DNA from: an uncultured Candidatus Saccharibacteria bacterium
GTDB lineage: Bacteria > Patescibacteriota > Minisyncoccia > Phycocordibacterales > UBA12445
NCBI GenBank assembly: GCA_964649715.1
Contig: CAZYTH010000005.1
Location: 1,765 to 65,764 of the forward strand
Length of the DNA stretch: 64,000 bases
Direction: 5' to 3'
Part shown: one piece after another, positions 3,659-31,709 of the stretch
Position numbering within the stretch: position 1 is the stretch's first letter
Layout of the letters: each line of letters opens with the position of its first letter
The notes under the pieces: generated by a model
The model's input: only the letters and a program-made list of their open reading frames with translations
Database searches by the model: none
Told to the model about the DNA's origin: nothing
Translations under genes and position numbers: made by a program

Positions 3659-6600
3659 TTATTTATATTCTCTTAGCCAGAAATGTTCATCTTTTATTTT
3701 AATCAAAACTTTTGATGCCCCCTCTGGTCTTAAAAAAGAAAGTGATGAATTTGAACCACTCTGTTGTTTAACCAAAAAGAAACCAATTGCATCTCCTTTA
3801 GAAAAAAGCAAATCATTTATCTTTCCATCATTACGCATACTAAAAGATATTAAGGTATCTGATTTCTCCATGCCAGGGGTATATCTATGTATTTTTGGCA
3901 ATGATTCAAATGTGCCATCACCTTTATTTAAATAAATAATAAGATAACCACGATTACATAATAAGACAATGTCCTTTTTGCCATCATTATTATAATCAAT
4001 TGTAGCGGAACCCAAAATATCTAGAACTAAATCGTCTATATACCTCGTTCCATAATCTTTTCTTTCCTCAAATTCACCGTTGTTTTTTCCTAAGAAAATA
4101 CTAAAAACAGGAGATTGGTAGTCATAATAGACCCCGTTACTTAAACCAGCAGAATATGACGCTACAGCTAAATCAGAAATTCCATCATTGTTAAAATCGG
4201 CAATGATTGGTTTTCCTGGATAAGGTAGCGTGTAATATGTATTTTTCTTTTCTAATTCACCATCTTCATTTCCGAGCATTATTGCAATCGTACTTGTATT
4301 AAAATCAGAAGCAACAACATCACCAAATGTATCATTATTTATTTTGCCCGCTGTTAAGTATGCTTGTGCGACAGAATTGGTTGAGAATTGTTCGTCAAAA
4401 TTTGGATTTCCGTCATTTTTCAAACCGCCATTTTTCAAAACAGTAATTCCTGGAGTCCCCGCCACGATATCAATCTTTCCATCTCCATTTATATCAATAA
4501 TATCCAAATATTGGAAATAAGGAGAGTCTGTTCCAAAATAGATAGGCTGTTTAAATGTATTATCACCCTTGTTCATAACAACCGAAACATTTCTGTCATC
4601 ACCGACAGCAACTATATCAGCCTTTCCGTCACCGTCCAAATCCCCTATTTTTACTTTGCGTAGTCTCCATCCAACTGAAAATTCAGATACATTGTATTTA
4701 AAACCATCGATATTTTCAGTCCCATTTTGATTACTCAAAAAAACAGAAATTGAGGAAGCCTTCTTATTTGCTGTCACAAAATCAGGTATGCTGTCATTGT
4801 TGAAATCATAAATATCAATACCCCATGTTTCAACATCAGTACCATTGCTTCTAATTAATTGTTTAAGTTCTTTATAGTCTAAAGAGCTAGTCGTTTCGCT
4901 ATTTGCCTTAATCAAAGAGACACCATACATAACAACATTATTACCTTCTTTTTTTGTCATTCGAAGCGGAGATGTAAGGACACCCTTTGGATCAAAAGCT
5001 ATCTTTATTTCTTTATCATCATGCTTAACACGAAATCCGATATCAACAAAATCGACAAAAGGCAAACTACAATCTTTTGTTCCTGTCATTAGTTTTGTTT
5101 TTTCACAATTGCTCGTTTGGGTAAAAGTTTCTGTGGTGCATTTTGTTGCAGGATCAGGAGTCCATGTTGTATCAACACAATCCCCAACATTCACGGTCAC
5201 GCTCTTTGAATCACTTCCCCCGGGACCTTCACAAGACAGTGTGAAGGTTTTGCTTTCTCTTAAGCTTCCTGTGGACTGAGAAGAGTCAAGGGTTCCTAAT
5301 GTTCCAGGAGCTAAAGTACCCGACCAACCAGTACCACTTCTTGTACAAGATGTGGCGTTTTTGGCGGTGTATCTGATTGTTGTGGCTGTGTTGTAATCAA
5401 CAAAACCGTGACCAACCGTCAGAGTGACTTCTGGTGGTTTTATGCTTACAGTTTTTGAATCTTCTACTTTTGCACCATTTATTCCAATACATTCAACCTT
5501 GTATGTTTTTGAGGTGGTGAGGTTGCCAGTAGAGAAACTTGATAAACTTGTGTAGCTACTTGACCAATCCCCTGACCAATCCCCAAGTCTCCTACAAGAA
5601 ATAACGTTTGTTGTCGTGTATGTTAGTGTTGCTGGCGTATTATAATCAACGAGTTCTTTGTCGACTGTGAAGTTTAAAGTTGGTGAATCTAAAGGCAAAC
5701 TACAATCTTTTGTTCCACTAATACCTGTTCTAGTCGAACCACACTCTGTACCCGTTTGGGTGAAAGTTTCTGTAGTGCATCTTGTTGCAGGGTCAGGAGT
5801 CCATGTTGTATCAACACAAGCCCCGACATTCACGGTCACGCTCTTTGAATCACTTCCCCCGGGACCTTCACAAGACAGTGTGAAGGTTTTGCTTTCTCTT
5901 AAGCTTCCTGTGGACTGAGAAGAGTCAAGGGTTCCTAATGTTCCAGGAGCTAAAGTACCCGACCAACCAGTACCACTTCTTGTACAAGATGTGGCGTTTT
6001 TGGCGGTGTATCTGATTGTTGTGGCTGTGTTGTAATCAACAAAACCGTGACCAACCGTCAGAGTGACTTCTGGTGGTTTTATGCTTACAGTTTTTGAATC
6101 TTCTACTTTTGCACCATTTATTCCAATACATTCAACCTTGTATGTTTTTGAGGTAAAAAGATTACCAGTAGGGAAACCTGATGCACTTGTGTAACTACCT
6201 GACCAATCCCCAAGTCTCCTACAAGAAGTAACGTTTGTTGTCGTGTATGTTAATTTTGTTGATGTATTGTAATCGACTGAATCGTTCTCGACTATGAAAT
6301 TTAGAGTTGGGGCTCCTGGTTCTGCAACAGAAACAACTACCTCTTTTTCAACATCACTACCTCCTGGGCCAGAACAATTCAGTCTGTAGGTTTTGCTTTC
6401 TGTTAAGCTTCCTGTGTCCCAAGAAGAGCTAAGTGCCCCTGATGATGCATTAGGAGGTAACGAGCCACTCCAATCTCCGCTTTTTGTACAGGATGTTGCG
6501 TTTTTAGCTGTATATTTAAGATTGGTTTTTTCTCCATAATTAAGATTTTGTTTAGTAGCCTCTAATGTAACAACTGGAGGGTTTATACCTATTATTACGT

Positions 6601-8455
6601 CCTTCTGCTCTTTATTATCCTTAGAATCTAAACAGACTAATACAAATTTATATTCGGCCTTTAAATCGCCCGTATATTTAGAATTAGGTGAGGTATGAGA
6701 ACCATTCGATAACGTTAGATAACCATCATTACTACCGTTCTTTGTAAAGTAACAGCTTTTGGCATTTTTAACAGTATACCTAAGGTATGTGGCTTTATTA
6801 AAATCAACCTTTTCTGCGTCAGTTGTTAACGTAACCTCTGGGGCGTTTGAATACAGAGTTACTTCCTGCTTCACATCTCTCCCCCCGGGACCATCACAAG
6901 TTAGTGTAAATGTTGTTTGTTCTTTTATTGAACCAACATTTGTACTTAGGTTTACAAAAGAACCAGTTGTTGCTGAAGGATTTAAAGAGCCTTTCCAAGA
7001 ATCGTTTCCAGTTCTTGTACAAGAGGTGGCATTTTTAACACTGTATGTAAGGGTTACGGTATCTTTATAATCATAATTTATTTTATTGTCTTTAGCGCTT
7101 AACGAAACCTCTGGAGCGTTTATGCTTATGGTCACTTCCTTTTCTCCAGCGTCTCCTCCTGGTCCTGAACAGTTTAATTTAAATGTTGTACCAACCTTTA
7201 AGTTTCCTGTGGTTATGCTTCCAATTGCAATAGAGCTAAGAATAAGATTATTGTATGTACCACCGCTTAGTTTACAGGATGTGGCGTTTTTGGATGTATA
7301 TTTAAGAGTGGTGGCTTTACCATATTCAACGCTACTATCAACAACCGTCAGTGTGGATTCTGGAGCGTTTATACTTACGGTTTTTGTATCTTCTACTTTA
7401 TTACCATTAATTCCAGTACATTCAACCTTGTATGTTTTTGAGGTGGTGAGGTTGCCAGTAGTTACATTCGTGGCGCTTATCCCAGAGCCAGTCCATCCGT
7501 CGCTTCTCTTACAAGAAGCAGCATTTGTTGTCTTGTATGATAACGTTGTTGATGTATTGTAATCGACTGAATCTTCCTCGACTGTGAAGTTTAGAGTTGG
7601 ATCATTTATCGTTACCGTGGTTTCTGCACTAATATCCTGATTTAAACTATTTTTACAATTTATTTTGAAGGTTTTTTGTTCTTTTATCTCTGGAGAAGGC
7701 CTCGATAATACGGTTTGGTTTGTCCCTATGACTTCACTCCAATTGCTTGTACAACTCTTCGCATTTTTTGTTTCCCAACTAAGATTCACTTTTTCCCCTG
7801 AATTGACTTTATCCCTGTCAGATTTAATTGTAACAGTCACTGGGTTTTGTACAGGACCTTCAAAAGGAGGATTTTCCTCTACGGGAGTATTTGTCGTCGC
7901 ACCATAAACATTGATAAGGAAATCTGGAATAGTTCCACAATTTCTCCACGCACAATCAATATAAGCGGAAGTATTAGGATAACAATAAGCTACTCTGTAA
8001 GAATTTGCAGATATTTTTCGAGAACCATTAATATTCTCTACTGTCCAAGTTTTCGTGTAAGTATTGGACTGATTAGCACTTCTCCCAACCCCCTCTCTGT
8101 TTGATCCGTTTGAGCACAAACTGGTTCCAAATACATCATAAAAACCATAGAGGTCGCTTCTAATGCCCTGAACAGGCGTAGACATAGGTATTACTCCTGT
8201 GGCTGATTCTGTAATGGTGCAAGTAATCTTACTAAGAGCCTTAACACTAGCACCCGATCGAATCACATTTTCATTTGCATCTTTGCAGGTAATTGACGCT
8301 ACAAAACCGTCACCACATTTATTTGTTTCGCCCGCAGAAGGATGTTTCTGCCCAACCTCTCTGCATTCCGCTGCTTCCCCTGTTGCTGGAAAAAAAATAA
8401 ACAAAAAACAAATAAAAGAAAAAAATAAGATAAGTTTTTTTAGATTAATTTTCAT
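3659..8455 (-). CDS. Giant secreted surface protein (1598 aa): signal peptide, several Ig-like ~100 aa repeats with conserved Cys pairs, C-terminal FG-GAP/VCBS-like repeats
   Basis: N-terminal MKINLKKLILFFSFICFLFIFFPATGEA signal peptide. Repeated LNFTV..VDYN..T.L.Y..NA.SC...W.G...K.Y.L.C.GPGG modules. C-terminal DGDGKADIV, INGDGKIDIV and NNDGKKDIV motifs typical of FG-GAP beta-propeller repeats. Confidence 0.7.
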   Translation of the reverse strand: MKINLKKLILFFSFICFLFIFFPATGEAAECREVGQKHPSAGETNKCGDGFVASITCKDANENVIRSGASVKALSKITCTITESATGVIPMSTPVQGIRSDLYGFYDVFGTSLCSNGSNREGVGRSANQSNTYTKTWTVENINGSRKISANSYRVAYCYPNTSAYIDCAWRNCGTIPDFLINVYGATTNTPVEENPPFEGPVQNPVTVTIKSDRDKVNSGEKVNLSWETKNAKSCTSNWSEVIGTNQTVLSRPSPEIKEQKTFKINCKNSLNQDISAETTVTINDPTLNFTVEEDSVDYNTSTTLSYKTTNAASCKRSDGWTGSGISATNVTTGNLTTSKTYKVECTGINGNKVEDTKTVSINAPESTLTVVDSSVEYGKATTLKYTSKNATSCKLSGGTYNNLILSSIAIGSITTGNLKVGTTFKLNCSGPGGDAGEKEVTISINAPEVSLSAKDNKINYDYKDTVTLTYSVKNATSCTRTGNDSWKGSLNPSATTGSFVNLSTNVGSIKEQTTFTLTCDGPGGRDVKQEVTLYSNAPEVTLTTDAEKVDFNKATYLRYTVKNAKSCYFTKNGSNDGYLTLSNGSHTSPNSKYTGDLKAEYKFVLVCLDSKDNKEQKDVIIGINPPVVTLEATKQNLNYGEKTNLKYTAKNATSCTKSGDWSGSLPPNASSGALSSSWDTGSLTESKTYRLNCSGPGGSDVEKEVVVSVAEPGAPTLNFIVENDSVDYNTSTKLTYTTTNVTSCRRLGDWSGSYTSASGFPTGNLFTSKTYKVECIGINGAKVEDSKTVSIKPPEVTLTVGHGFVDYNTATTIRYTAKNATSCTRSGTGWSGTLAPGTLGTLDSSQSTGSLRESKTFTLSCEGPGGSDSKSVTVNVGACVDTTWTPDPATRCTTETFTQTGTECGSTRTGISGTKDCSLPLDSPTLNFTVDKELVDYNTPATLTYTTTNVISCRRLGDWSGDWSSSYTSLSSFSTGNLTTSKTYKVECIGINGAKVEDSKTVSIKPPEVTLTVGHGFVDYNTATTIRYTAKNATSCTRSGTGWSGTLAPGTLGTLDSSQSTGSLRESKTFTLSCEGPGGSDSKSVTVNVGDCVDTTWTPDPATKCTTETFTQTSNCEKTKLMTGTKDCSLPFVDFVDIGFRVKHDDKEIKIAFDPKGVLTSPLRMTKKEGNNVVMYGVSLIKANSETTSSLDYKELKQLIRSNGTDVETWGIDIYDFNNDSIPDFVTANKKASSISVFLSNQNGTENIDGFKYNVSEFSVGWRLRKVKIGDLDGDGKADIVAVGDDRNVSVVMNKGDNTFKQPIYFGTDSPYFQYLDIIDINGDGKIDIVAGTPGITVLKNGGLKNDGNPNFDEQFSTNSVAQAYLTAGKINNDTFGDVVASDFNTSTIAIMLGNEDGELEKKNTYYTLPYPGKPIIADFNNDGISDLAVASYSAGLSNGVYYDYQSPVFSIFLGKNNGEFEERKDYGTRYIDDLVLDILGSATIDYNNDGKKDIVLLCNRGYLIIYLNKGDGTFESLPKIHRYTPGMEKSDTLISFSMRNDGKINDLLFSKGDAIGFFLVKQQSGSNSSLSFLRPEGASKVLIKIKDEHFWLREYK
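5061..6369. repeat. Intragenic tandem duplication (two units of about 640-655 bp) inside the giant surface protein gene. The core 5152-5515 and 5791-6154 is near-identical (364 bp, 2-3 mismatches).
   Basis: Direct comparison of the two stretches. A more divergent third copy of the repeat end lies near 7391-7462. Confidence 0.8.
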
Positions 8456-10920: not shown

Positions 10921-12250
10921 ATGGATAAAATACTTTCTAAAATAAAAAATAAAATTCCGAAGAGCTTTCTTGAAAAAATTAGACCAGCTTATCATTACTC
11001 TCTAGCTCTACTGGGCAACACAATATACAACTCCCCCTCAAAAGAAATATTTGTGATCGGGATAACGGGAACAAAAGGAAAATCCACCACAGTTGAGATC
11101 TTGAGTGCGATATTAGAGGAAGCAGGTTACAAAACAGCGGTTGCTTCCACCGTCAGGTTCAAGATAGACAAAGACAGCAAGTCCAACCTCCTAAAAATGA
11201 CAATGCCTGGAAGATTTTTTATTCAAAAATTTTTAAGAGAAGCCGTTGTCGCTGGTTGTGAATACGCAATAATAGAAATGACCTCTGAGGGTGCGAAGAA
11301 CTTCAGACATAAATTTGTTGAACTTAATTCTCTGATATTTACAAATATATCACCCGAACACATTGAGTCTCACGGATCATATGAAAAATATCTTGGGGCA
11401 AAACTATCCATCGCCAAACAGCTAGAATCTTCTGGAAAACCAAGTCGCTCTATTATCGCAAACGGCGACGACGAGGAATCTGATAAATTCTTTAAAATAA
11501 ATGTTCCCAACAAAATAGCGTTTTCTCTTGCGGAAGCAAAACCATTTACCCTAGAAAAAGAATATTCTGATATAAACATCTTCGGAGAAAGAGTTATCAC
11601 AAAATTACCAGGAGAATTCAATGTGATGAACATACTTGCGGCATCCACCTTCGCAAGAAGCCAGGGAATATCGCCGACTATAATAAAAAATGCGATAGAA
11701 AAAATAAAAAATATTCCGGGAAGAGTTGAAAAAATTGAAATAAATTCTAAAGATAAAAGATGAAAGTGGCAAAGAAATTGGAATTGGAACATTTCCTGAT
11801 TTTAGCGTAATCGTTGATTATGCACACACGGCTGATTCATTAGAAAAACTTTATAAAGTTTTTAAGCGAGAAAAAAGAATCTGTGTCCTTGGGAGTTGTG
11901 GAGGAGGACGAGACAAATGGAAAAGACCTAAAATGGGATCCGTTGCAGAAAATTATTGTGATGAAATAATCTTAACCGACGAAGATCCTTACGACGAAGA
12001 TCCGGAGGAAATAATTAGAGAAGTTGCGAAAGGAATCAAAAACAAAAAACCAAAAATTATTTTAGATAGAAGAGAGGCAATCAGAGAAGCACTCTCATGT
12101 GCGAAAAAAGGTGATGTTGTTCTTATAACAGGTAAGGGAACCGATCCATGTATAATGAAAAAAAATGGAGAAAAAATTTCATGGAGCGACAAGGAAGTGA
12201 CAGAGGAAGAATTAGTTAAGCTGGCAATTGAGAGAACGGTGAACAAATAA
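10921..12250 (+). CDS. Mur ligase family protein (MurE-like UDP-N-acetylmuramoyl-tripeptide ligase), apparent frameshift near 11745-11765
   Basis: GITGTKGKSTT P-loop. Mur-ligase core ...FTNISPEHIESHGSYEKYLGAKLSIAKQ...IPGRVEKIEI. The conserved VIVDYAHTADSLEKL motif is only in the +1 frame (11765 onward), which continues into ORF 11933-12250 (C-terminal Mur ligase domain). The frame switch is at an A-rich tract aaagataaaagatgaaag. Confidence 0.65.
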
Positions 12251-12263
12251 ATTAAAAATTATC

Positions 12264-12280
12264 AATTACGAATTACGAAT
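12264..12280. repeat. Copy of dispersed AT-rich repeat caattacgaattacgaat
   Basis: Seen directly. Same motif at 43142-43160, 43510-43528 (inverted), 49474-49505, 49544-49555 (inverted), 49990-50023 and 58538-58556 (inverted, inside uvrD). Confidence 0.6.
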
Positions 12281-12379
12281 TTTTCAAAAAGAGAATAATG
12301 ATTGTGAGGAAATTATAAAAATAATAGGAAAAATTCGAACAACTGTCAGAGATAATTCTTAATTTTTAATTAAACTAAA

Positions 12380-13333
12380 TTGCCTGAACTTCCCGAAGTT
12401 ACAACAATAGTCTCCGGACTAAATAAAAGAGTAAAAGGTCTTATCATAAAAGACGTCTGGACTGACCTGCCTAAACGGCAGGCAGGTCTGCCTGCCGGCA
12501 GGAAAGTTGGGCTACGCAAGCAAGATCTTCTGACAATAAAAAATCCTGAATATTACAAAAATTTCAAAAAAGAAGTCGCAGGAAAAAAAATAATCGTTTG
12601 TGAAAGGATAGGAAAAAATATTTTAATGCACTTGTCCGGTAACACGACTATTCTCTTCCACATGAAAATGACAGGGCACTTGCTTTGCGGAAAATGGATT
12701 TCCGTCAAAGGTGAAAAAAATGCGTGGAAGCCAGAGAACAAAAACTCCCCTCTTTGTGATCCGTACAATAGATTTATTCATATAATTTTCTATCTAGATA
12801 ACGGCAAAATGCTCGCGCTTTCTGATATGAGAAAATTTGCTAAAGTGACATTGCTTAAAAAAGAAAATGAAAAAGAGTTTTCAGAAATAAAAAAAATTGG
12901 TCCTGACCCTTTAAAAATAAATTTAAAAAAATTTAGGGAACTTATAAGGAAAAAACCAACGGGAAAAATAAAACAGGTTTTAATGGATCAAGAATTAATT
13001 TCAGGCATAGGAAATATTTATTCAGACGAAATACTTTGGGCAACTGGAATACATCCGTTGGAGAAAATAAAAAAAATTACAGATGAAAAAATAAAAATGA
13101 TGTATGAAACAACTAAAAAAATTTTAACAGAATCAATAAATTATGGAGGAGATTCTATGTCTGATTTTAGAAACATTGACGGAGAAAAAGGAAATTACCA
13201 GAAACACCACAAGGCATACAGACAGACAGGAAAACCTTGTCCCAAAAGAGACGGGGGGAAAATTGTGAAAACAAAAGTTGGGGGAAGAAGCGCGCACTAT
13301 TGTAATGTGCACCAATCACTTCAGCATAAATAA
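12380..13333 (+). CDS. mutM: Formamidopyrimidine-DNA glycosylase (Fpg/MutM), TTG start, carrying an in-frame palindromic-repeat insertion
   Basis: N-terminal (M)PELPEVTTIV. C-terminal zinc finger CPKRDGGKIVKTKVGGRSAHYCNVHQ. H2TH region present. Residues ...DLPKRQAGLPAGRKVGLRK... are encoded by the GC-rich palindromic repeat at 12466-12502. Confidence 0.85.
   Translation: MPELPEVTTIVSGLNKRVKGLIIKDVWTDLPKRQAGLPAGRKVGLRKQDLLTIKNPEYYKNFKKEVAGKKIIVCERIGKNILMHLSGNTTILFHMKMTGHLLCGKWISVKGEKNAWKPENKNSPLCDPYNRFIHIIFYLDNGKMLALSDMRKFAKVTLLKKENEKEFSEIKKIGPDPLKINLKKFRELIRKKPTGKIKQVLMDQELISGIGNIYSDEILWATGIHPLEKIKKITDEKIKMMYETTKKILTESINYGGDSMSDFRNIDGEKGNYQKHHKAYRQTGKPCPKRDGGKIVKTKVGGRSAHYCNVHQSLQHK
12466..12502. 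repeat. GC-rich palindromic repeat (cctgcc-taaac-ggcagg, then cctgccggcagg) inserted in frame within fpg
   Basis: Seen directly. Member of the cctgcctgcc/ggcaggcagg family. Confidence 0.6.
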
Positions 13334-18730: not shown

Positions 18731-19198
18731 CTACTTCTTCTTCTTGCCGCCCTTACCCTTGTTCTTCTTGTTCTTGCCCCCATCGGAGGAGCCGCCCTTC
18801 CCTTTCTTCTGCTTCGGGGGCTTCACCTTGGGATGCCAAGTGCCGTTGGCCTTCCCCGCTTCGATGCCGGCCCAACGAGCCGGCTTGGCCTTGGACTTTT
18901 TCTTCGACCCAACGCGGGAACGATTCAGGATTGACGGTCGATACTCCTCCTGAATCAAACCCTTGATGTAGGCCGAGTGGATTCGACGAACCTGAAAAGC
19001 CTCCCTTTCCTCGGCGTCGAAAATCGCGCCGTTCTGGACTTCGATGATGTTGCCGAGCGTGAAGTCCTTGTTGACGGTCTGAACCTTCCAGTCTCCTTCA
19101 TTGTCGGGAAGATTGGAGAGATTCTCGAGAATAATCCCGAGACCCTCAAACACCGAGAGGAAAAACTTGATTACCTCACCGACACGGAAGTTCACCAT
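18731..19198 (-). CDS. Hypothetical protein (155 aa) with GC3-rich codon usage and a Lys/Gly-rich C-terminal tail (KKKSKAKPA...KGKGGKKKK)
   Basis: Coherent ORF in a GC-rich segment. Consensus sigma70 promoter and AAAAGGAGGG ribosome-binding site upstream. Basic tail suggests nucleic-acid binding. No family recognised. Confidence 0.55.
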   Translation of the reverse strand: MVNFRVGEVIKFFLSVFEGLGIILENLSNLPDNEGDWKVQTVNKDFTLGNIIEVQNGAIFDAEEREAFQVRRIHSAYIKGLIQEEYRPSILNRSRVGSKKKSKAKPARWAGIEAGKANGTWHPKVKPPKQKKGKGGSSDGGKNKKNKGKGGKKKK

Positions 19199-19245
19199 AA
19201 AAATAGCCCTCCTTTTAAAATTTTGATGTTCTTAATTCTCTTTTA

Positions 19246-19274
19246 ATTATATACCTTTATTATGAATCTGTCAA
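19246..19274 (-). promoter_or_regulatory. Consensus sigma70 promoter TTGACA-17-TATAAT for the 155 aa gene
   Basis: Minus strand reads ggtggtgTTGACAgattcataataaaggtaTATAATtaaaag, about 45 nt upstream of ribosome-binding site AAAAGGAGGG and the ATG at 19198. Confidence 0.6.
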
Positions 19275-19435
19275 CACCACCAAATAAAATTGTCTAAAAT
19301 ACAGATAATCAACGACTATCATCCCTTTTGTCATTCCCGACTTGATCGGGAATCCAGAAATTGTCTTTGAAACTGGATCCCCGTTTTCACGGGGATGACA
19401 ACTAAAACCGAGTCGCACTAAGAAAAAACATGCAA

Positions 19436-19492
19436 CCCTGATTGGATAAAAATATATTCATCTAAAATGAATATATTTTTATCCAATCAGGG
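19436..19492 (-). terminator. 26 bp perfect inverted repeat with 5 nt loop, followed on the minus strand by ttgcatgtttttt
   Basis: ccctgattggataaaaatatattcat-ctaaa-atgaatatatttttatccaatcaggg. Unusually long stem. Could also be a protein-binding palindrome. Confidence 0.5.
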
Positions 19493-19502
19493 TAAAGAAA
19501 AA

Positions 19503-19580: not shown

Positions 19581-20459
19581 TTACTTCTTGTTGGTCGGGC
19601 GGAGTTTGGATAGAAGGTTGGCAACCACCGGAACCTTCTCGATCTGTGCCCTGAATCCCTCATCCATCCACTTGAAGTGAGCGAACAGGAATCCGCCGTT
19701 ACCGTTCTGATTCTTGCGCCGTTCCAAGATCGGAACATCGCGCTCGAGACCGAGCTCCACCTTGCCTTCAACGAGCTGAAGAGTCCGGACCTTGGCCCAG
19801 ATCTCCCCATCGAAGCCTGACTTGGTGGAGATTACCGCACAGGGGCCCGCCGACCCGTGGATGTGGAGTTCTCCCCGAATGACACGAGGCCAGTCGAAGA
19901 TTTCCTTTCCGTCGGCGAGTTTCTTCTTCTTGGTGAAGCCACGGGAACCCCATTGCCAGCGAGCCTCGGAGATGGGCAGGGTGATCAGGATCTCGGAGAT
20001 CCGCTTGGCCAACTTCAGCTTAAGCTGGTCAGCGACGGCCTTGGGCAGGATCCGGAATTCGCTACGGGAAAGACTGACCGGAACGCCCTCGGAGGTCTCG
20101 GCCTCCATCTGACCATCGGCCTTGACCGAGATCAAGACCAGGTGACCGCACTTGACCGCAGCACCGACATAGCCGGACCGCGGATCGATGGGGGGCAGCT
20201 CCTTCAGAGTGCCGTCTTCCATCTTCTTCTGGCGGCGGATGTTGGCCATGCCGTAGAGACCGTTGAGCTCGAACTGCTCGATCGGGCGAAGGGAGGTCTT
20301 CTGGACCGCCTCCATGACCTGGTCGGTGCCGGCGATCTGAAGATCGACGAGATCTTCGGTTTCCTTGAGGATGAACATGGGCTTGGCGGATGGATCGTCC
20401 TTGAAGGCGACCCATTCCAACACGAACCGTGGTCTGCTGTTCTGATTCTTGTTCTCCAT
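19581..20459 (-). CDS. Hypothetical protein (292 aa) with GC3-rich codon usage
   Basis: Long ORF with protein-like composition. Opposite-strand ORFs are Asp/Gly/Leu-rich antisense artefacts. Ribosome-binding site AAAGGAGGG lies 8 nt before the ATG. No family recognised. Confidence 0.55.
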   Translation of the reverse strand: MENKNQNSRPRFVLEWVAFKDDPSAKPMFILKETEDLVDLQIAGTDQVMEAVQKTSLRPIEQFELNGLYGMANIRRQKKMEDGTLKELPPIDPRSGYVGAAVKCGHLVLISVKADGQMEAETSEGVPVSLSRSEFRILPKAVADQLKLKLAKRISEILITLPISEARWQWGSRGFTKKKKLADGKEIFDWPRVIRGELHIHGSAGPCAVISTKSGFDGEIWAKVRTLQLVEGKVELGLERDVPILERRKNQNGNGGFLFAHFKWMDEGFRAQIEKVPVVANLLSKLRPTNKK

Positions 20460-20763
20460 AACAATTGCCCTCCTTTGGGCTTCGAAATTCAGAATGTACC
20501 CTTTCGCTAAACTACCTCTTCCTCCAAAGAAGATTTGATTAAGCGAAGGACACGCGCACGGCCGGGTGAAATTCCACGGCCAATTTTTAGAACAGTTTCC
20601 CTTCCTCCTTTTTCATTTAACATAGAATTGACATCGCTTTCCTTGTGACGGAATTTCTCCCGCCCAAGATGGCAGTGCCGAGTCCGGATGTTGTTGTTGA
20701 CTTAATCCACCTCCTTCTTTTTGAAATAACCTTTATTGCAATGAACAAACTTGATTTTGGTTT

Positions 20764-20792
20764 ATAATACACAAAACTATATTTTTGTCAAG
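20764..20792 (-). promoter_or_regulatory. Near-consensus sigma70 promoter TTGACA-17-TATTAT that would give a ~300 nt GC-rich 5' leader for the 292 aa gene
   Basis: Minus strand reads gtcTTGACAaaaatatagttttgtgTATTATaaacc. Confidence 0.45.
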
Positions 20793-20840
20793 ACAAATTT
20801 GCGATAATCTAAAATAACGGCTTAAAATAAAAATTTTTAG

Positions 20841-27994: not shown

Positions 27995-28229
27995 ACAATT
28001 TATTCGATTTATGATTTATGAAAAATCCCTCACGATTATTCGCAAGGGATAATTTTCCGCTCGTGGCGGAAAAGAATTAAAGAAAAAAGGTAAAAGGATT
28101 AGTAGGAAACTGCTTGCCCTCTCACCAACCTCTCCACTGAGAGTTTTTAGTGAATGCGGGAAGCCGTAGGCGAGTTCGGATACCTAACTCGGCCAATCAT
28201 GAACTCTAATCGAGATTGGTGACTGGGGA

Positions 28230-29021
28230 TTAGGAAACTACTGCACGAGCCCGCAAGCGCGAGAACGAATCGCTGGTGCGGCACCAATCCACGTAGAACT
28301 TGCCAGCGCTCCAGCCCGCGCCCGGGACGCTGCCATCGGAATAGCGGGAGCCGCTACAGAGGGTAGTGCTGTTGATGTCCAAGTGGTGTTTGGTAAGCCG
28401 GAAGTAGAAGAGCTCGAGAAGACGGCGCTCGAGGAGGGTCATGGTCTGGATCTTTTGTTTCTCGATATCGAGAGCCGAAAGATTCTTGAGATCTTTGGGC
28501 ACTTCGATGGAGTCTTTGATCCAGATGGCATAGGACTTCGTGATGTTTCTCTCTTCCTTGCCCTGGTCCATGTCCTTGTCGAGATCGTCGCCGTACTTCC
28601 AGGTGGACATACCGAGCTTCTTCTCGCCGTCAGAGATCATTTTGTGTGTCAGTGACTTGGTGATGAACATCAGGAAGTCGAAACCTTGTTTGTAGTCCGG
28701 GATATCCTCCCTTTCTTTCAGGTCCAAGCCGAGAACTTCCTTATAGAATTTCTTCCAGATCCACTGGAATTCGTCAGGAACATTGACCATCTGTCCACCA
28801 AGGATGGCAGACATCTTGGGTGTGAAAGTGGCCAGCACTTTCTTGCCGAGAATCGCCTCTCGAAGTCGGGCAATCCTTTCGGGTTGTTTCATACCAATGA
28901 AGGCTTGCAGTTCTTCGGGTGTGACCTCATTGTAGACAACCGAGAGAGCTTTTAGAACTGCGCAGTCAACTTCTCGCGCGAGTCCTCCTTGCTTTTGGAC
29001 ATTCCCGTTTTGCTTGGGCAT
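28230..29021 (-). CDS. Unknown-family protein P1 (263 aa), paralog of the two downstream genes, with foreign GC3-rich codon usage
   Basis: Shares W.KFY.K.LG.D, acidic cluster ... K.YAIW(I/V)(K/R)D, TLLE and TLC.GS.Y motifs with ORFs 29315-30142 and 30139-31035. The coding sequence is about 55% GC while its flanks are AT-rich. Confidence 0.6.
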   Translation of the reverse strand: MPKQNGNVQKQGGLAREVDCAVLKALSVVYNEVTPEELQAFIGMKQPERIARLREAILGKKVLATFTPKMSAILGGQMVNVPDEFQWIWKKFYKEVLGLDLKEREDIPDYKQGFDFLMFITKSLTHKMISDGEKKLGMSTWKYGDDLDKDMDQGKEERNITKSYAIWIKDSIEVPKDLKNLSALDIEKQKIQTMTLLERRLLELFYFRLTKHHLDINSTTLCSGSRYSDGSVPGAGWSAGKFYVDWCRTSDSFSRLRARAVVS

Positions 29022-29096
29022 TTCCTTTCTCCTTTTTAAAAGAACTTACTTGGGTCTCGCCAAGTCAATCGCGAAAAACACTTTCGCTTTATCGGA

Positions 29097-29125
29097 AGAT
29101 TACAGTAGATTGGTCGGTCTGTCAA
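29097..29125 (-). promoter_or_regulatory. Sigma70-like promoter TTGACA-17-TAATCT for P1
   Basis: Minus strand reads aaggTTGACAgaccgaccaatctactgTAATCTtccg, about 75 nt upstream of the ATG at 29021. Confidence 0.5.
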
Positions 29126-29146
29126 CCTTTGTCCTCCACTCATACT

Positions 29147-29162
29147 TAATGTAGTATAGAAA
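29147..29162. promoter_or_regulatory. Candidate operator: palindrome tacta-atg-tagta within shared 16-mer taatgtagtatagaaa upstream of P1
   Basis: Identical 16-mer at 31124-31139 upstream of the P3-P2 operon. 5 bp inverted repeat with 3 nt spacer. Confidence 0.45.
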
Positions 29163-29276
29163 AGTAGTCGTTAGTTTTTAGTTGATAGTTTTTAGAAAAA
29201 CAGACAATTTTTTACTGTCGCAATACCACTGAGGTTTTTTAAAATACGCACATTCATAAATATAGGTTTAATATAG

Positions 29277-29302
29277 AAAACCCCGCAATTAATGCGGGGT
29301 TT
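29277..29302 (-). terminator. Terminator hairpin aaaccccgc-aattaat-gcggggttt after the P3-P2 operon
   Basis: Perfect 9 bp stem. T-rich tract follows on the minus strand. Confidence 0.6.
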
Positions 29303-29314
29303 CAGACCTAAAAA

Positions 29315-30142
29315 TCACTTAGAAACAACTTCTCGTATCCTAAGACGGTGATCTTTTGTGTCTAGTTTAAAAGGATGAATAACAAGTAGATTAGTTCTTG
29401 TGAGCATCATTGGACAAAATTCTTGATAACTCACAGTAGGAACAAATTCTCTCTTTGTCTCTTTGTCGTAGTAAACACTACCAACACAAAAAGTTTGTGA
29501 ATCAACATCTAAATGTTCCCCTGTTTCTTCAAAATACTTAAGATGGAAAATAAGTCTTTCCAAAAGATTGATGCTGTTTATTCCAAGACTCAGCGACATT
29601 TCAGGGCTTAGTTGACGATGTGCACTATCAGACCATTCACAATCCCTAACCCAAATTGCATAAGCTGATGTTGGTTTTCTTACACTAACGCAATCAATAT
29701 CAACTTCAGCAGGAATTCTATTTTCATAACTAAACAGGCTGATATTTTTAAACAACCCAACATTGTTTCCTCTAAAAACTCGAAAAACATGTTCAAGAAT
29801 TAAATCCTTTGGAATGATAATAAGCCTATCAAATCCCTTTCTTAGTTCAGGTATGTTCTCTTTTAAAAAAACAAGATCAATTCCAAAATATTTCCTATAA
29901 AACCTTTTCCAATCTTCAATCAAAATTTCTATTTCATCGAGTATTTTTGTTCCGACGCAACAAGTAATGAGAAATTCTCTAAAACTTTTACGAAAAGACT
30001 CCGGGTTATTTCTTGCTCTTGTTAAAACTTTTTCAATAATATCCTCTTCTTTTGGTAGAGATTTCAATATTGTGATATCAAAATCTCTAAAATTTTTGAT
30101 ACACTTAGACACAAAGGCACCAATATTTTCACTTACCTTCAT
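29315..30142 (-). CDS. Unknown-family protein P2 (275 aa), tandem paralog
   Basis: Motifs EDWKRFYRKYFGIDL, VDIDCVSVRKPTSAYAIWVRD, NLLERLIF, TFCVGSVYYD. Its start overlaps the P3 stop by 4 bp (operon). Confidence 0.6.
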   Translation of the reverse strand: MKVSENIGAFVSKCIKNFRDFDITILKSLPKEEDIIEKVLTRARNNPESFRKSFREFLITCCVGTKILDEIEILIEDWKRFYRKYFGIDLVFLKENIPELRKGFDRLIIIPKDLILEHVFRVFRGNNVGLFKNISLFSYENRIPAEVDIDCVSVRKPTSAYAIWVRDCEWSDSAHRQLSPEMSLSLGINSINLLERLIFHLKYFEETGEHLDVDSQTFCVGSVYYDKETKREFVPTVSYQEFCPMMLTRTNLLVIHPFKLDTKDHRLRIREVVSK

Positions 30143-31035
30143 TTGTCAATCTCCTTAAATTCAATTACAGAGCGTGCTCGTATCTTTATTTGATATGCCT
30201 CATCAAGAGAAATAATTATACTTTGATTAGACTCGTCAAACTGTTTGTATTGAACTCCTTTTATAGTGAGACGGGTTCCATTCATATATACGATAGGAAC
30301 AAAAACATTCCACAAAGGAATATTTGAAACATTTTCTATATCCTTCTTGTAAACGGTACCCAAACACAATGTGGCTCCATTGCAATCAAGAATATTTTTT
30401 TTATTCTCGTCTAAACATTTCGCAAACAAAACAAAGTATTCCAAAAGAGTTATTCCATTTATTCCTATCCGACTTAGCAAATCTGGATAACCCTGAAGAC
30501 TGTTTTCTGCATCTAACTCATCTTTAACCCAAACAGCATAACCTTTTTGCTTGGAATTTCTAACATTTTCTGTGATTTCATCAAAATCATCTGTCTTTGT
30601 ACTCATACTCCACCTAAAACAAGGGATAAACTCCACCAAAAAAGAATACATTCTTTCTGTTGTCATCCCCTTGGGAATCATCAGAAGCCTACTGTAGCCA
30701 GGATTTTTTTTTGGAATAAGAATATCGGAAAGAAATTCTGGTCTTATACCAAAATATTTTTGATAAAACATCTTCCAATCCAATACGATATACTCTATGT
30801 CACGTTCCGTAAAAGGAATAAAGGTTTTTTGGATAATAGAAATTATTTCTATTATCCTAGAAACTTCACCTGGAGAAATCTTTTGATTACAATTTATCTC
30901 TTTCTTCAAAACAATCAAGGATTCCTTTATTATTAGTAAGGTGGTGTCTGAAACCTGAATTTTCTCGTTCATTTGTACATCCTTATTTTCAAGGTTCTTT
31001 TTTATAACAAAAGCAAAAATAAGACTTTTAAGCAA
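30139..31035 (-). CDS. Unknown-family protein P3 (298 aa), tandem paralog
   Basis: Motifs LDWKMFYQKYFGIRP, DDFDEITENVRNSKQKGYAVWVKDE, TLLEYFVLF, TLCLGTVYKKD. Confidence 0.6.
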   Translation of the reverse strand: MLKSLIFAFVIKKNLENKDVQMNEKIQVSDTTLLIIKESLIVLKKEINCNQKISPGEVSRIIEIISIIQKTFIPFTERDIEYIVLDWKMFYQKYFGIRPEFLSDILIPKKNPGYSRLLMIPKGMTTERMYSFLVEFIPCFRWSMSTKTDDFDEITENVRNSKQKGYAVWVKDELDAENSLQGYPDLLSRIGINGITLLEYFVLFAKCLDENKKNILDCNGATLCLGTVYKKDIENVSNIPLWNVFVPIVYMNGTRLTIKGVQYKQFDESNQSIIISLDEAYQIKIRARSVIEFKEIDK

Positions 31036-31123
31036 GGGAAAAGAATAATATCTAAATTATCGGTAATTAAAAGTTAATGTATATAAAATTAAATAATTTA
31101 ATACTTGATTAGCCTTACCGTAC

Positions 31124-31139
31124 TAATGTAGTATAGAAA
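31124..31139. promoter_or_regulatory. Second copy of the operator-like 16-mer taatgtagtatagaaa, between divergent P3 and yebC
   Basis: Identical to 29147-29162. Lies about 90 nt upstream of the P3 start. Confidence 0.45.
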
Positions 31140-31169
31140 GACAGTCAAATTAAAAGCTTAAAAAATTTT

Positions 31170-31709
31170 ATGAGTGGTCATAACAAATTTTCAAAAATAA
31201 AACACAAAAAAGGTGCAGAAGATGCAAAAAAAAGCAAAGCTTTCGCAATGATGTCCAAGAAGATAACAGTTGAGTCTCGTATTGCTAAGGGCGATAAAAA
31301 CTCTCCAGGTCTTAGAAAGGTGATCGAGAATGCACGCAAAATTAACATGCCGAACGACAAAATTGATACTGCCATAGCCAAGGGAATTGGCGCAGGTGGA
31401 GCAGAAATGCAAAATGTAATGTATGAAGCCTATGGGCCAGGAGGATCTGCTATAATAATTACGGGCATAACCGACAACAAAAACAGAATGACTCCAGAAA
31501 TTAAGCACTTACTTTCTGCAAACGGGGGAACATTGGGAGGAGAAGGATCGGTTATCTGGGCATTTCAAAAGAAAGAAGATGAGTGGGAATCAACGATGCC
31601 ATTAGAATTACCCGAGAAAGACAGAGGGTCCTTAATTAATTTGTTAGAAATAATTGACGAACACGAAGACGTAGAAAGTATATATACAAACATCTCCAAT
31701 TTAGAATAA
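31170..31709 (+). CDS. yebC: YebC/PmpR-family probable transcriptional regulator (short form, 179 aa)
   Basis: MSGHNKFSKIKHKKGAEDAKKSKAF ... MYEAYGPGGSAIIITGITDNKNRMTPEIKHLLSANGGTLGGEGSV matches the YebC N-terminal and middle domains. Gene order yebC-ruvC as in many bacteria. Confidence 0.75.
   Translation: MSGHNKFSKIKHKKGAEDAKKSKAFAMMSKKITVESRIAKGDKNSPGLRKVIENARKINMPNDKIDTAIAKGIGAGGAEMQNVMYEAYGPGGSAIIITGITDNKNRMTPEIKHLLSANGGTLGGEGSVIWAFQKKEDEWESTMPLELPEKDRGSLINLLEIIDEHEDVESIYTNISNLE

Follow-up and report, generated by a model that had tools for sequence, protein, structure and literature searches.

Three members of a Patescibacteria family of diversity-generating retroelement variable proteins, probably in an orphaned state

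In a 64-kb window of a Candidatus Saccharibacteria genome (64,000 nt of the 84-kb contig CAZYTH010000005.1; the genome is fragmentary), three related open reading frames (ORFs), here called P1, P2 and P3, lie in a row on the minus strand. The original prediction, made from the sequence alone, took them for a tandem array of divergent paralogs of an unrecognised family, with P1 of foreign origin. The present analysis showed that P1, P2 and P3 belong to a large family found in Patescibacteria, whose members are variable proteins of diversity-generating retroelements (DGRs) and have a C-type-lectin fold. The fitting label for each of them is that of a DGR variable-protein family member with no DGR in view in the window. 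The genes and their signals, with VR standing for variable region, are as follows.

28230-29021, minus strand: P1, 263 aa; a helical N-terminal region of ~80 aa and a C-type-lectin-fold domain; GC-rich coding sequence (CDS)
29315-30142, minus strand: P2, a 275-aa paralog of the same fold, with AT-rich native composition and a degenerate, apparently fixed former VR with insertions
30139-30972, minus strand: P3, a 277-aa paralog of native composition, with an apparently fixed former VR with long insertions
29277-29303, minus strand: intrinsic terminator of the P3-P2 operon, an 11-bp stem and then UUUUCUAU (-18.7 kcal/mol, z -4.2)
29097-29125, minus strand: promoter-like TTGACA-17-TAATCT of P1, read from the sequence, then a ~75-nt leader and an AAGGAG ribosome-binding site

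Pairwise BLASTP comparisons gave E values of 6e-20 (P1-P2), 2e-21 (P2-P3) and 8e-11 (P1-P3), showing that the three ORFs are true paralogs, and the motifs that had been pointed out as shared, W.KFY, YA[IV]W[VI][KR]D, LLE, TLC.GS.Y and R.R..V, are invariant or nearly invariant columns of the alignment. All three ORFs lie where they had been placed, except that P3 is probably shorter: its reading frame is open up to TTG 31035, and ATG 30972 is the likeliest start because the alignment with the ortholog P0004 (50% identity) begins at M22. The 4-bp overlap of P3 and P2 at 30139-30142 and the strong terminator after P2 were both confirmed. Both hexamers of the proposed P1 promoter are present; the -10 hexamer, however, has only 3/6 consensus bases and scored under the threshold of a promoter scan. 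The P1 leader is partly conserved with the leader of the ortholog P0003.

The family and its retroelements in related loci

Searches of P1-P3 against Pfam, NCBIfam, PHROGs, PADLOC and the PDB sequences gave sub-threshold noise only. Among 5.8 billion proteins, a profile search picked out 88 'hypothetical proteins', from Patescibacteria wherever a source was named; an exhaustive search of the same type yielded 2465 cluster representatives, of which 1241 had E <1e-30. The family was nearly absent from IMG/VR (4 loci), indicating that it is not phage-borne, and P2-type genes, looked for in JGI metagenome contigs, were not found there. The family is thus unrecognised as far as Pfam and NCBIfam go, as had been predicted, but proteins of this kind have been described: DGR surveys (PMC8144416, PMC5758913) report DGR targets without recognisable domains within the Candidate Phyla Radiation (CPR); one of them (PMC8144416) describes a Patescibacteria-restricted DGR clade with such targets.

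The predicted fold of the family proteins is a C-type-lectin (CLec) fold like that of formylglycine-generating enzyme (FGE), at a structural identity of 7-12%, and P2 gave the same set of matches. The variable residues are carried by this C-terminal fold, as they are in DGR variable proteins. Relatives were located with a conserved-stretch alignment in species-representative genomes (79 loci), and about 80 related loci were scanned. In ~40 of these 80 loci the last ~120 nt of the family gene are repeated ~285 nt downstream (range 231-375) as a template repeat (TR). Mismatches between VR and TR fell almost exclusively at TR adenines, as in 28/28 cases in locus L026, 25/25 in L016, 23/23 in L062, 23/23 in L007 and 17/17 in L029. 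When translated, the TR copy reads as an Asn-rich 'GSRNSDGNVPNVNWNDDKLNVNWYNPDNANDNLRSR.EVS', and its AAC codons fall where the family consensus is variable. Adjoining the TR are a ~122-aa bAvd (PF22296, 56.5 bits versus a gathering threshold of 40) on the opposite strand and a ~350-aa reverse transcriptase (RT; RVT_1, 84.9 bits versus a gathering threshold of 29.6). Within four clusters of proteins of at least 90% identity, 22/26, 10/10, 17/17 and 13/16 of the variable columns lie in the last 45 residues. A TR with mismatches almost only at its adenines, a bAvd and an RT are the defining anatomy of a DGR, and the family is therefore one of DGR variable proteins.

Two loci departed from the arrangement of one target beside one TR. 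In L014, which lies on another contig of the same metagenome-assembled genome as L013, 23/25 mismatches between the VR and the L013 TR are at A, which is remote targeting; L070 has two targets for one TR. The order of the cassette is also of note. The bAvd gene lies between TR and RT on the strand opposite to target, TR and RT, with its 5' end overlapping the start of the RT ORF (in L026, bAvd is at 11132-11500 on the minus strand, the TR at 10991-11113 and the RT at 11459-12511), and a TR transcript in these cassettes would run antisense into avd.

The VR of the relatives ends in an invariant GC-rich segment like the initiation of mutagenic homing (IMH) site, after which there is a GC hairpin with a ~4-nt loop. 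Directly 3' of the stop codon is a CTT element made up of three CTT(G/T) units ~8-9 nt apart and then the GC hairpin and a T-run; examples are L016 10604-10680 and L026 10700-10775, and none was seen after TRs. A triple-CTT motif within 45 nt of the stop codon was found in 21/39 family genes with a local TR and in 17/37 without one, versus 0/507 control ORFs. Over both groups this makes 38/76 family genes. Together with the hairpin, the triple-CTT repeat is a candidate for an element of the acceptor site in DGRs of Patescibacteria.

No signal peptide, lipobox or membrane segment is visible in the P1-P3 sequences, and the family proteins are, to judge by sequence, apparently cytoplasmic or otherwise intracellular. 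P1-P3 would be ligand-binding proteins.

The acceptor site of P1 and the P3-P2 operon

We searched the window for the remainder of a DGR. Neither RT nor Avd was detected in it by tblastn with 15 RTs and 10 Avds, an nhmmer search with the TR profile found no TR in it besides P1's own 3' end, and a self-BLAST of the window gave no A-biased repeat pair. None of P1, P2 and P3 has within the window a VR-TR pair with adenine differences. The following features lie at and beyond the 3' end of P1.

28233-28355, minus strand: P1 VR equivalent, including the IMH-like invariant 3' end at 28233-28256, TTGCGGGCTCGTGCAGTAGTTTCC; GC 0.66
28103-28230, minus strand: 128-nt insertion, exactly at the VR/IMH 3' boundary, which creates P1's present stop codon; GC 0.50
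28079-28096, minus strand: CTT-repeat, CTTTTACCTTTTTTCTTT, the displaced family 3' element, 134 nt after the P1 stop codon
28025-28073, minus strand: two hairpins of the displaced 3' element, also a convergent terminator shared with ruvB; -25 kcal/mol, z -4.7

The P1 3' end (28229-28355) was the window's sole match to a profile of 19 TRs (nhmmer E 3.5e-10). Compared with the consensus of these heterologous TRs, the P1 VR differs at 24/34 consensus-A columns versus 12/65 non-A columns, and compared with the 61%-identical ortholog P0003, the differences in the VR segment are at Asn-codon positions, with the scaffold GSRYSDG.VP...W...F.V.WC...LRAR.VVS conserved. The excess at adenine columns and the differences at Asn positions indicate that P1 was historically diversified by a DGR.

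What had been described as a GC-rich 3' untranslated region does exist, at a GC of 0.50, but it is a discrete 128-nt insertion. It is flanked by a duplicated GCAG(TAG)TTTCCTA at 28231-28244 and 28103-28113. Beyond it the ancestral gene end, CAGTTTCCTACTAATCCTTTTACC (28085-28113), can be aligned with the real gene end of P0003 over 32 nt at 90.6% identity, and the ancestral '...TCC TAC TAA' end survives at 28099-28107. The P1 acceptor site has its IMH-like end, and its CTT-repeat and hairpins are displaced by 128 nt. The insert folds into three hairpins (z -2.54); no further copy was found in the window or in the related loci, and Rfam gave no match to it. An origin in avd or in the region downstream of a TR was considered and dropped, no similarity to either being found. 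The insert sits just where the integration of DGR cDNA would begin; it may have arisen as a by-product when retrohoming went wrong, or it may be a mobile element of small size.

The history of the P3-P2 pair is different. In L083 an orthologous P3-then-P2 pair is found, adjacent, at 50% and 54% identity, with native GC and in an unrelated context. P2 and P3 are each nearer to canonical family members than to each other, and neither arose by a recent duplication of P1 or of the other. Their VR equivalents have a GC of 0.31-0.35, the minimum of the family, versus at least 0.57 in DGR-linked genes; these former VRs carry insertions, yet they are well conserved between orthologs. Neither P2 nor P3 has an IMH-like end or the CTT/hairpin 3' element. 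The pair is best read, by these sequence comparisons, as an old conserved operon of domesticated members of the fold with fixed specificity. The suggestion that the locus is under diversifying selection stood in part: the relatives are targets of DGR hypermutation, of the ligand- or host-interaction type, but P2 and P3 are an old conserved pair and not a diversifying array.

The explanation we favour, and hold to be probable, is that P1-P3 are in an orphaned or decayed DGR-target state, with P1 frozen, P3-P2 domesticated and the codon regime of P1 native. Across the family, the lectin-fold domain would have its binding surface in its final ~40 residues, and these are also the DGR VR. The TR ~285 nt downstream of the target gene would be transcribed, the RT/bAvd pair would reverse-transcribe it with misincorporation opposite adenines, and the cDNA would replace the VR, the acceptor being marked by the IMH-like 3' end, the CTT-repeat and the hairpin. 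In P1, a canonical member of the family, the 128-nt insertion has parted VR and IMH from the acceptor element; the variable protein, thereby most likely decommissioned, would now act as a binder of fixed specificity under the control of a promoter of its own. The P3-P2 pair would be an older operon with the same fold, which has lost every DGR feature and now encodes domesticated, fixed-specificity paralogs.

The strongest rival is that P1 is an active remote target, its VR being rewritten in trans by a DGR elsewhere in the genome, with P2 and P3 as unrelated bystanders. Remote targeting does occur in the family, as the L014 VR and L013 TR show, about half of the family genes have no local TR while 17/37 of these keep the 3' CTT element, and P1 retains the IMH-like end and an A-depleted VR with a GC of 0.66. 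Set against this is the insertion, which parts the P1 VR and IMH from a CTT-repeat and hairpin that in relatives are directly 3' of the stop codon. In Bordetella phage BPP-1, homing requires a hairpin no more than ~35 bp from the VR and falls with spacer insertions of >3 bp (PMC3240598), and by analogy the 128-nt insertion should disable P1 as an acceptor. Further, no TR was found within the 64 kb, and the P1 VR was identical in two samples: L084, an independent assembly from another run (1471 nt), has one single-nucleotide difference, outside the VR. The two known P1 copies thus differ by one residue, also outside the VR, although with n=2 this is a weak test of hypervariability. We accordingly rate a frozen former target above an active remote target, the latter being rather unlikely in our judgement, and P1 is probably no longer diversified.

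Several points weigh against our reading. A DGR beyond the 64 kb seen could still act on P1, given that remote targeting occurs in the family, and the ortholog P0003 has no local TR, yet its 3' element is intact. The two P1 samples are possibly from one population, which makes the identity of their VRs weak evidence. The effect of the insert on homing is taken from a distant phage system in which the natural distance between VR and hairpin is somewhat flexible. The P1 VR, at a GC of 0.66, and the P1 CDS have not drifted toward the 36% GC of the genome, which implies either a recent freeze or a continuing force. To our knowledge, no CPR DGR target has been assigned a ligand or a role in the cell.

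Base composition and codon usage of P1

P1 has a GC of 0.519 and a GC at third codon positions (GC3) of 0.67, against a window GC of 0.357 and a median GC3 of ~0.30. P2 and P3 are native-like, with a GC of 0.32 and a GC3 of 0.22-0.29, and the region upstream of P1 is AT-rich (0.31-0.39). The contrast between a GC-rich P1 CDS and its AT-rich upstream region was thus as predicted. On the 'foreign' reading of the original prediction, P1 would have been acquired recently and horizontally, out of a lineage of higher GC, and inserted beside resident paralogs. In favour of it are a GC of +0.16 over the surroundings and codon usage that is anti-correlated with the bulk genes; P1 and its ortholog P0003 also lie in different genomic contexts, and horizontal movement of DGRs is known (PMC5758913).

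The GC excess proved, however, to be a property of the family across hosts of 31-59% GC. Of the TR-linked loci, 94% had a family gene with a higher GC than its host (mean +0.109); for the remaining loci the share was 81% (mean +0.067). The P1 excess of +0.164 is inside the family range. Among GC3 outliers across all loci, 32/44 were family genes. A meta-profile of 32 cassettes showed the excess beginning at the start codon, peaking in the VR (+0.18 to +0.23), gone in the spacer, back in the TR and negative over avd and RT; inside one and the same cassette, the GC of the target CDS exceeds that of the host by ~0.1 on average, and avd and RT are 0.04-0.10 below the host. At third positions outside the VR, A and T are lost equally and C is gained more than G, whereas RT third positions are host-like. 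The P1 promoter and leader are AT-rich as well. The closest relative of P1 is in a 39% GC genome, its nearest relatives are in hosts of 35-49% GC, and no clade of genomes of at least 50% GC was seen around P1 among the 80 loci.

The codon regime of P1 is, moreover, shared by two other genes of the window.

18731-19198, minus strand: GC-rich gene, 155 aa; GC3 0.74; promoter at ~19230-19275; Lys/Gly-rich tail; no Pfam match
19581-20459, minus strand: GC-rich gene, 292 aa; GC3 0.77; promoter at ~20760-20795; ~250-nt leader; no Pfam match

The correlation of relative synonymous codon usage of P1 was -0.37 with the bulk genes, 0.72 with the 292-aa gene and 0.59 with the 155-aa gene. Both of these genes have AT-rich, near-consensus promoters, and the pair recurs beside holA in the related loci L089 and L090, where it is also GC-richer than its flanks. 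Only 4 homologs of the 292-aa protein were found among the 5.8 billion proteins. Given a family-wide excess limited to the CDS and two native genes with the same regime, the composition of P1 is no evidence of foreign origin, and a recent acquisition from a higher-GC lineage is improbable. Native genes that match the codon usage of P1 were also what the original prediction had named as a finding that would refute it. What fits better is a gene-class regime of C-ending codons confined to the CDS, possibly linked to expression. The genes for EF-Tu, L2, S2 and GroEL, looked for in the related loci as a codon-bias comparison, were not present in them.

Other accounts of the GC-rich stretch fared no better. 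Adenine-specific depletion of the whole target gene was rejected on the equal loss of A and T at third positions. A GC-biased conversion that spread out of the VR is unlikely, and so is a horizontal transfer of the cassette as a whole, for the excess stops at the CDS borders and avd and RT are GC-poor. A structured RNA was rejected as an explanation: only three tRNAs reached the gathering threshold in Rfam, and near P1 there was no significant match.

Lastly, P1-P3 might be enzymes of the FGE, EgtB, glyoxalase or nuclease type rather than binding proteins, but this is very improbable, because the weak matches to glyoxalase I (TIGR00068, E 1.6e-4, 21.6 bits versus a cut-off of 120) and to Pfam Glyoxalase (PF00903, E 0.069, 14 bits versus 20.6) are, like every enzyme sequence match, far under the curated cut-offs, the fold is the standard scaffold of DGR variable proteins (TvpA, Mtd, TaqVP), and a hypervariable segment would destroy a fixed active site. 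Membership of the glyoxalase/vicinal oxygen chelate superfamily was dropped after structure prediction gave a CLec fold, and the FGE-sulfatase family (PF03781) gave no Pfam match at E <=1, the similarity to it (7-12% identity) being at the level of fold only. The nuclease-type active site and the defence locus of the original prediction both went unsupported: no match to a nuclease or to a known anti-phage defence protein was found in Pfam, PADLOC, PHROGs or the PDB sequences.

Some observations concern the GC-rich genes themselves. An IS200-like Y1 transposase gene (PF01797; 17755-18622) lies beside a tRNA-Lys gene and the 155-aa/292-aa pair, and a 59-nt near-perfect palindrome is at 19435-19493, between the two genes of the pair. 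In related loci, L027 3535-4185, L035 4365-5015 and L082 1042-1614 are GC3-outlier genes of a different small family with lectin-VR-like C-termini (...CFDWGG..W......RFVRPR), perhaps a second family of remote DGR targets.

Other features, implications and known systems

The P1-P3 locus is set among housekeeping genes. Its upstream neighbours are ruvB and the gene for a PilB-like ATPase; on the downstream side are yebC and ruvC. The YebC/TACO1 homolog (31170-31709) is just 179 aa long, against the usual ~240 aa, and the profile of its second and third domains was matched in part. A probable surface protein, large at 1598 aa and with a signal-peptide-like N-terminus, is encoded at 3659-8455 on the minus strand, and its gene has ~630-nt tandem repeats (5058-7600) of 62-89% identity. 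The locus also has two copies of a 16-mer.

31124-31139, minus strand: copy 1 of TTTCTATACTACATTA, ~150 nt upstream of the P3 start codon
29147-29162, minus strand: copy 2 of TTTCTATACTACATTA, 22 nt upstream of the P1 -35 hexamer

The 16-mer is the core of a ~30-nt similar stretch, and these are its only copies in the window (0.15 matches expected by chance); it was found in none of 83 related loci. The two copies could be an operator or promoter element that P1 and P3 have in common, a pair of direct repeats bracketing P3-P2, or the scar of a duplication.

CPR DGR variable proteins are abundant and of unknown function. The system in this window is of a known kind, its state is uncommon, and it is neither a new family nor foreign DNA. 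Specialists may find three things new: a CTT-repeat as an acceptor element, a codon regime confined to targets and an insertion at the integration boundary. We suggest, tentatively and with more doubt than confidence, that three aspects of DGRs in Patescibacteria, so far undescribed, come to light in the locus and its relatives, namely the CTT acceptor element, the codon regime of targets and the decommissioning of P1. The CTT-repeat may be a recognition element specific to acceptors, as it is found after VRs and not after TRs and is kept by remote targets. A target-only regime of C-ending codons would imply strong selection, either on expression or on the target's own nucleic acid. The decommissioning of a target may have left its record in P1, as a structured insert at the boundary of cDNA integration with a duplicated IMH end, possibly through aberrant retrohoming; in that case the P3-P2 pair would be where the process ends, in domesticated lectin-fold paralogs of fixed specificity.

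One family would thus offer a series, the part of it in the window lying within 3 kb: relatives that are diversified elsewhere, a recently orphaned P1, and P2 and P3 fixed long ago. Such a series could help to define the cis elements of a DGR acceptor and the fate of a hypervariable binder once a useful specificity has been found. For genome scans there is a caution: where a Patescibacteria genome is AT-rich, a gene that stands out as GC-rich and 'foreign-looking' can belong to a native gene class, in this case DGR targets, and need not be horizontally transferred. For annotation, >2,400 clusters of 'hypothetical proteins' are now assigned to a concrete system.

The family is to be compared with the DGR targets of CPR/Patescibacteria, of which Paul et al. 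in 2017 reportedly gave a further account. The targets of DGR clade 2 (Roux et al. 2021, PMC8144416) are likewise small and without a recognisable transmembrane or Pfam domain; they have a C-terminal VR, an adjacent TR and a DGR-type RT plus Avd, and they are confined to Patescibacteria, a description that the relatives of P1 fit exactly. By description the P1 family can also be set beside the 'CPR set' and the UVR classes of Wu et al. 2018 (PMC5758913). The copies in the window differ from these targets in having no TR, Avd or RT, in the split of the P1 acceptor by an insertion, and in the lack of VR features in P2 and P3, which are conserved as an operon.

Among better-studied systems, TvpA of Treponema denticola (PDB 2Y3C) also has an FGE-type C-type-lectin fold with C-terminal variable residues, and the Treponema DGR also has several non-adjacent targets (PMC5758913); unlike P1-P3, to which it has 5-13% sequence identity, TvpA is a surface lipoprotein, and the N-terminal region of P1-P3 is different. 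The low similarity and different accessory domains of TaqVP (PDB 5VF4) and of nanoarchaeal AvpA (PMC5006420) set both apart. Mtd of Bordetella phage BPP-1 (PDB 1YU0; PMC3240598) is a trimeric phage tail-fibre tip, unlike the family, but in its gene the IMH is followed by a hairpin, as it is after the VRs of the relatives. In BPP-1, avd is between VR and TR on the same strand, whereas in the relatives of P1 bAvd is between TR and RT on the opposite strand, and the relatives differ further from BPP-1 in having an extra triple-CTT repeat between the stop codon and the hairpin.

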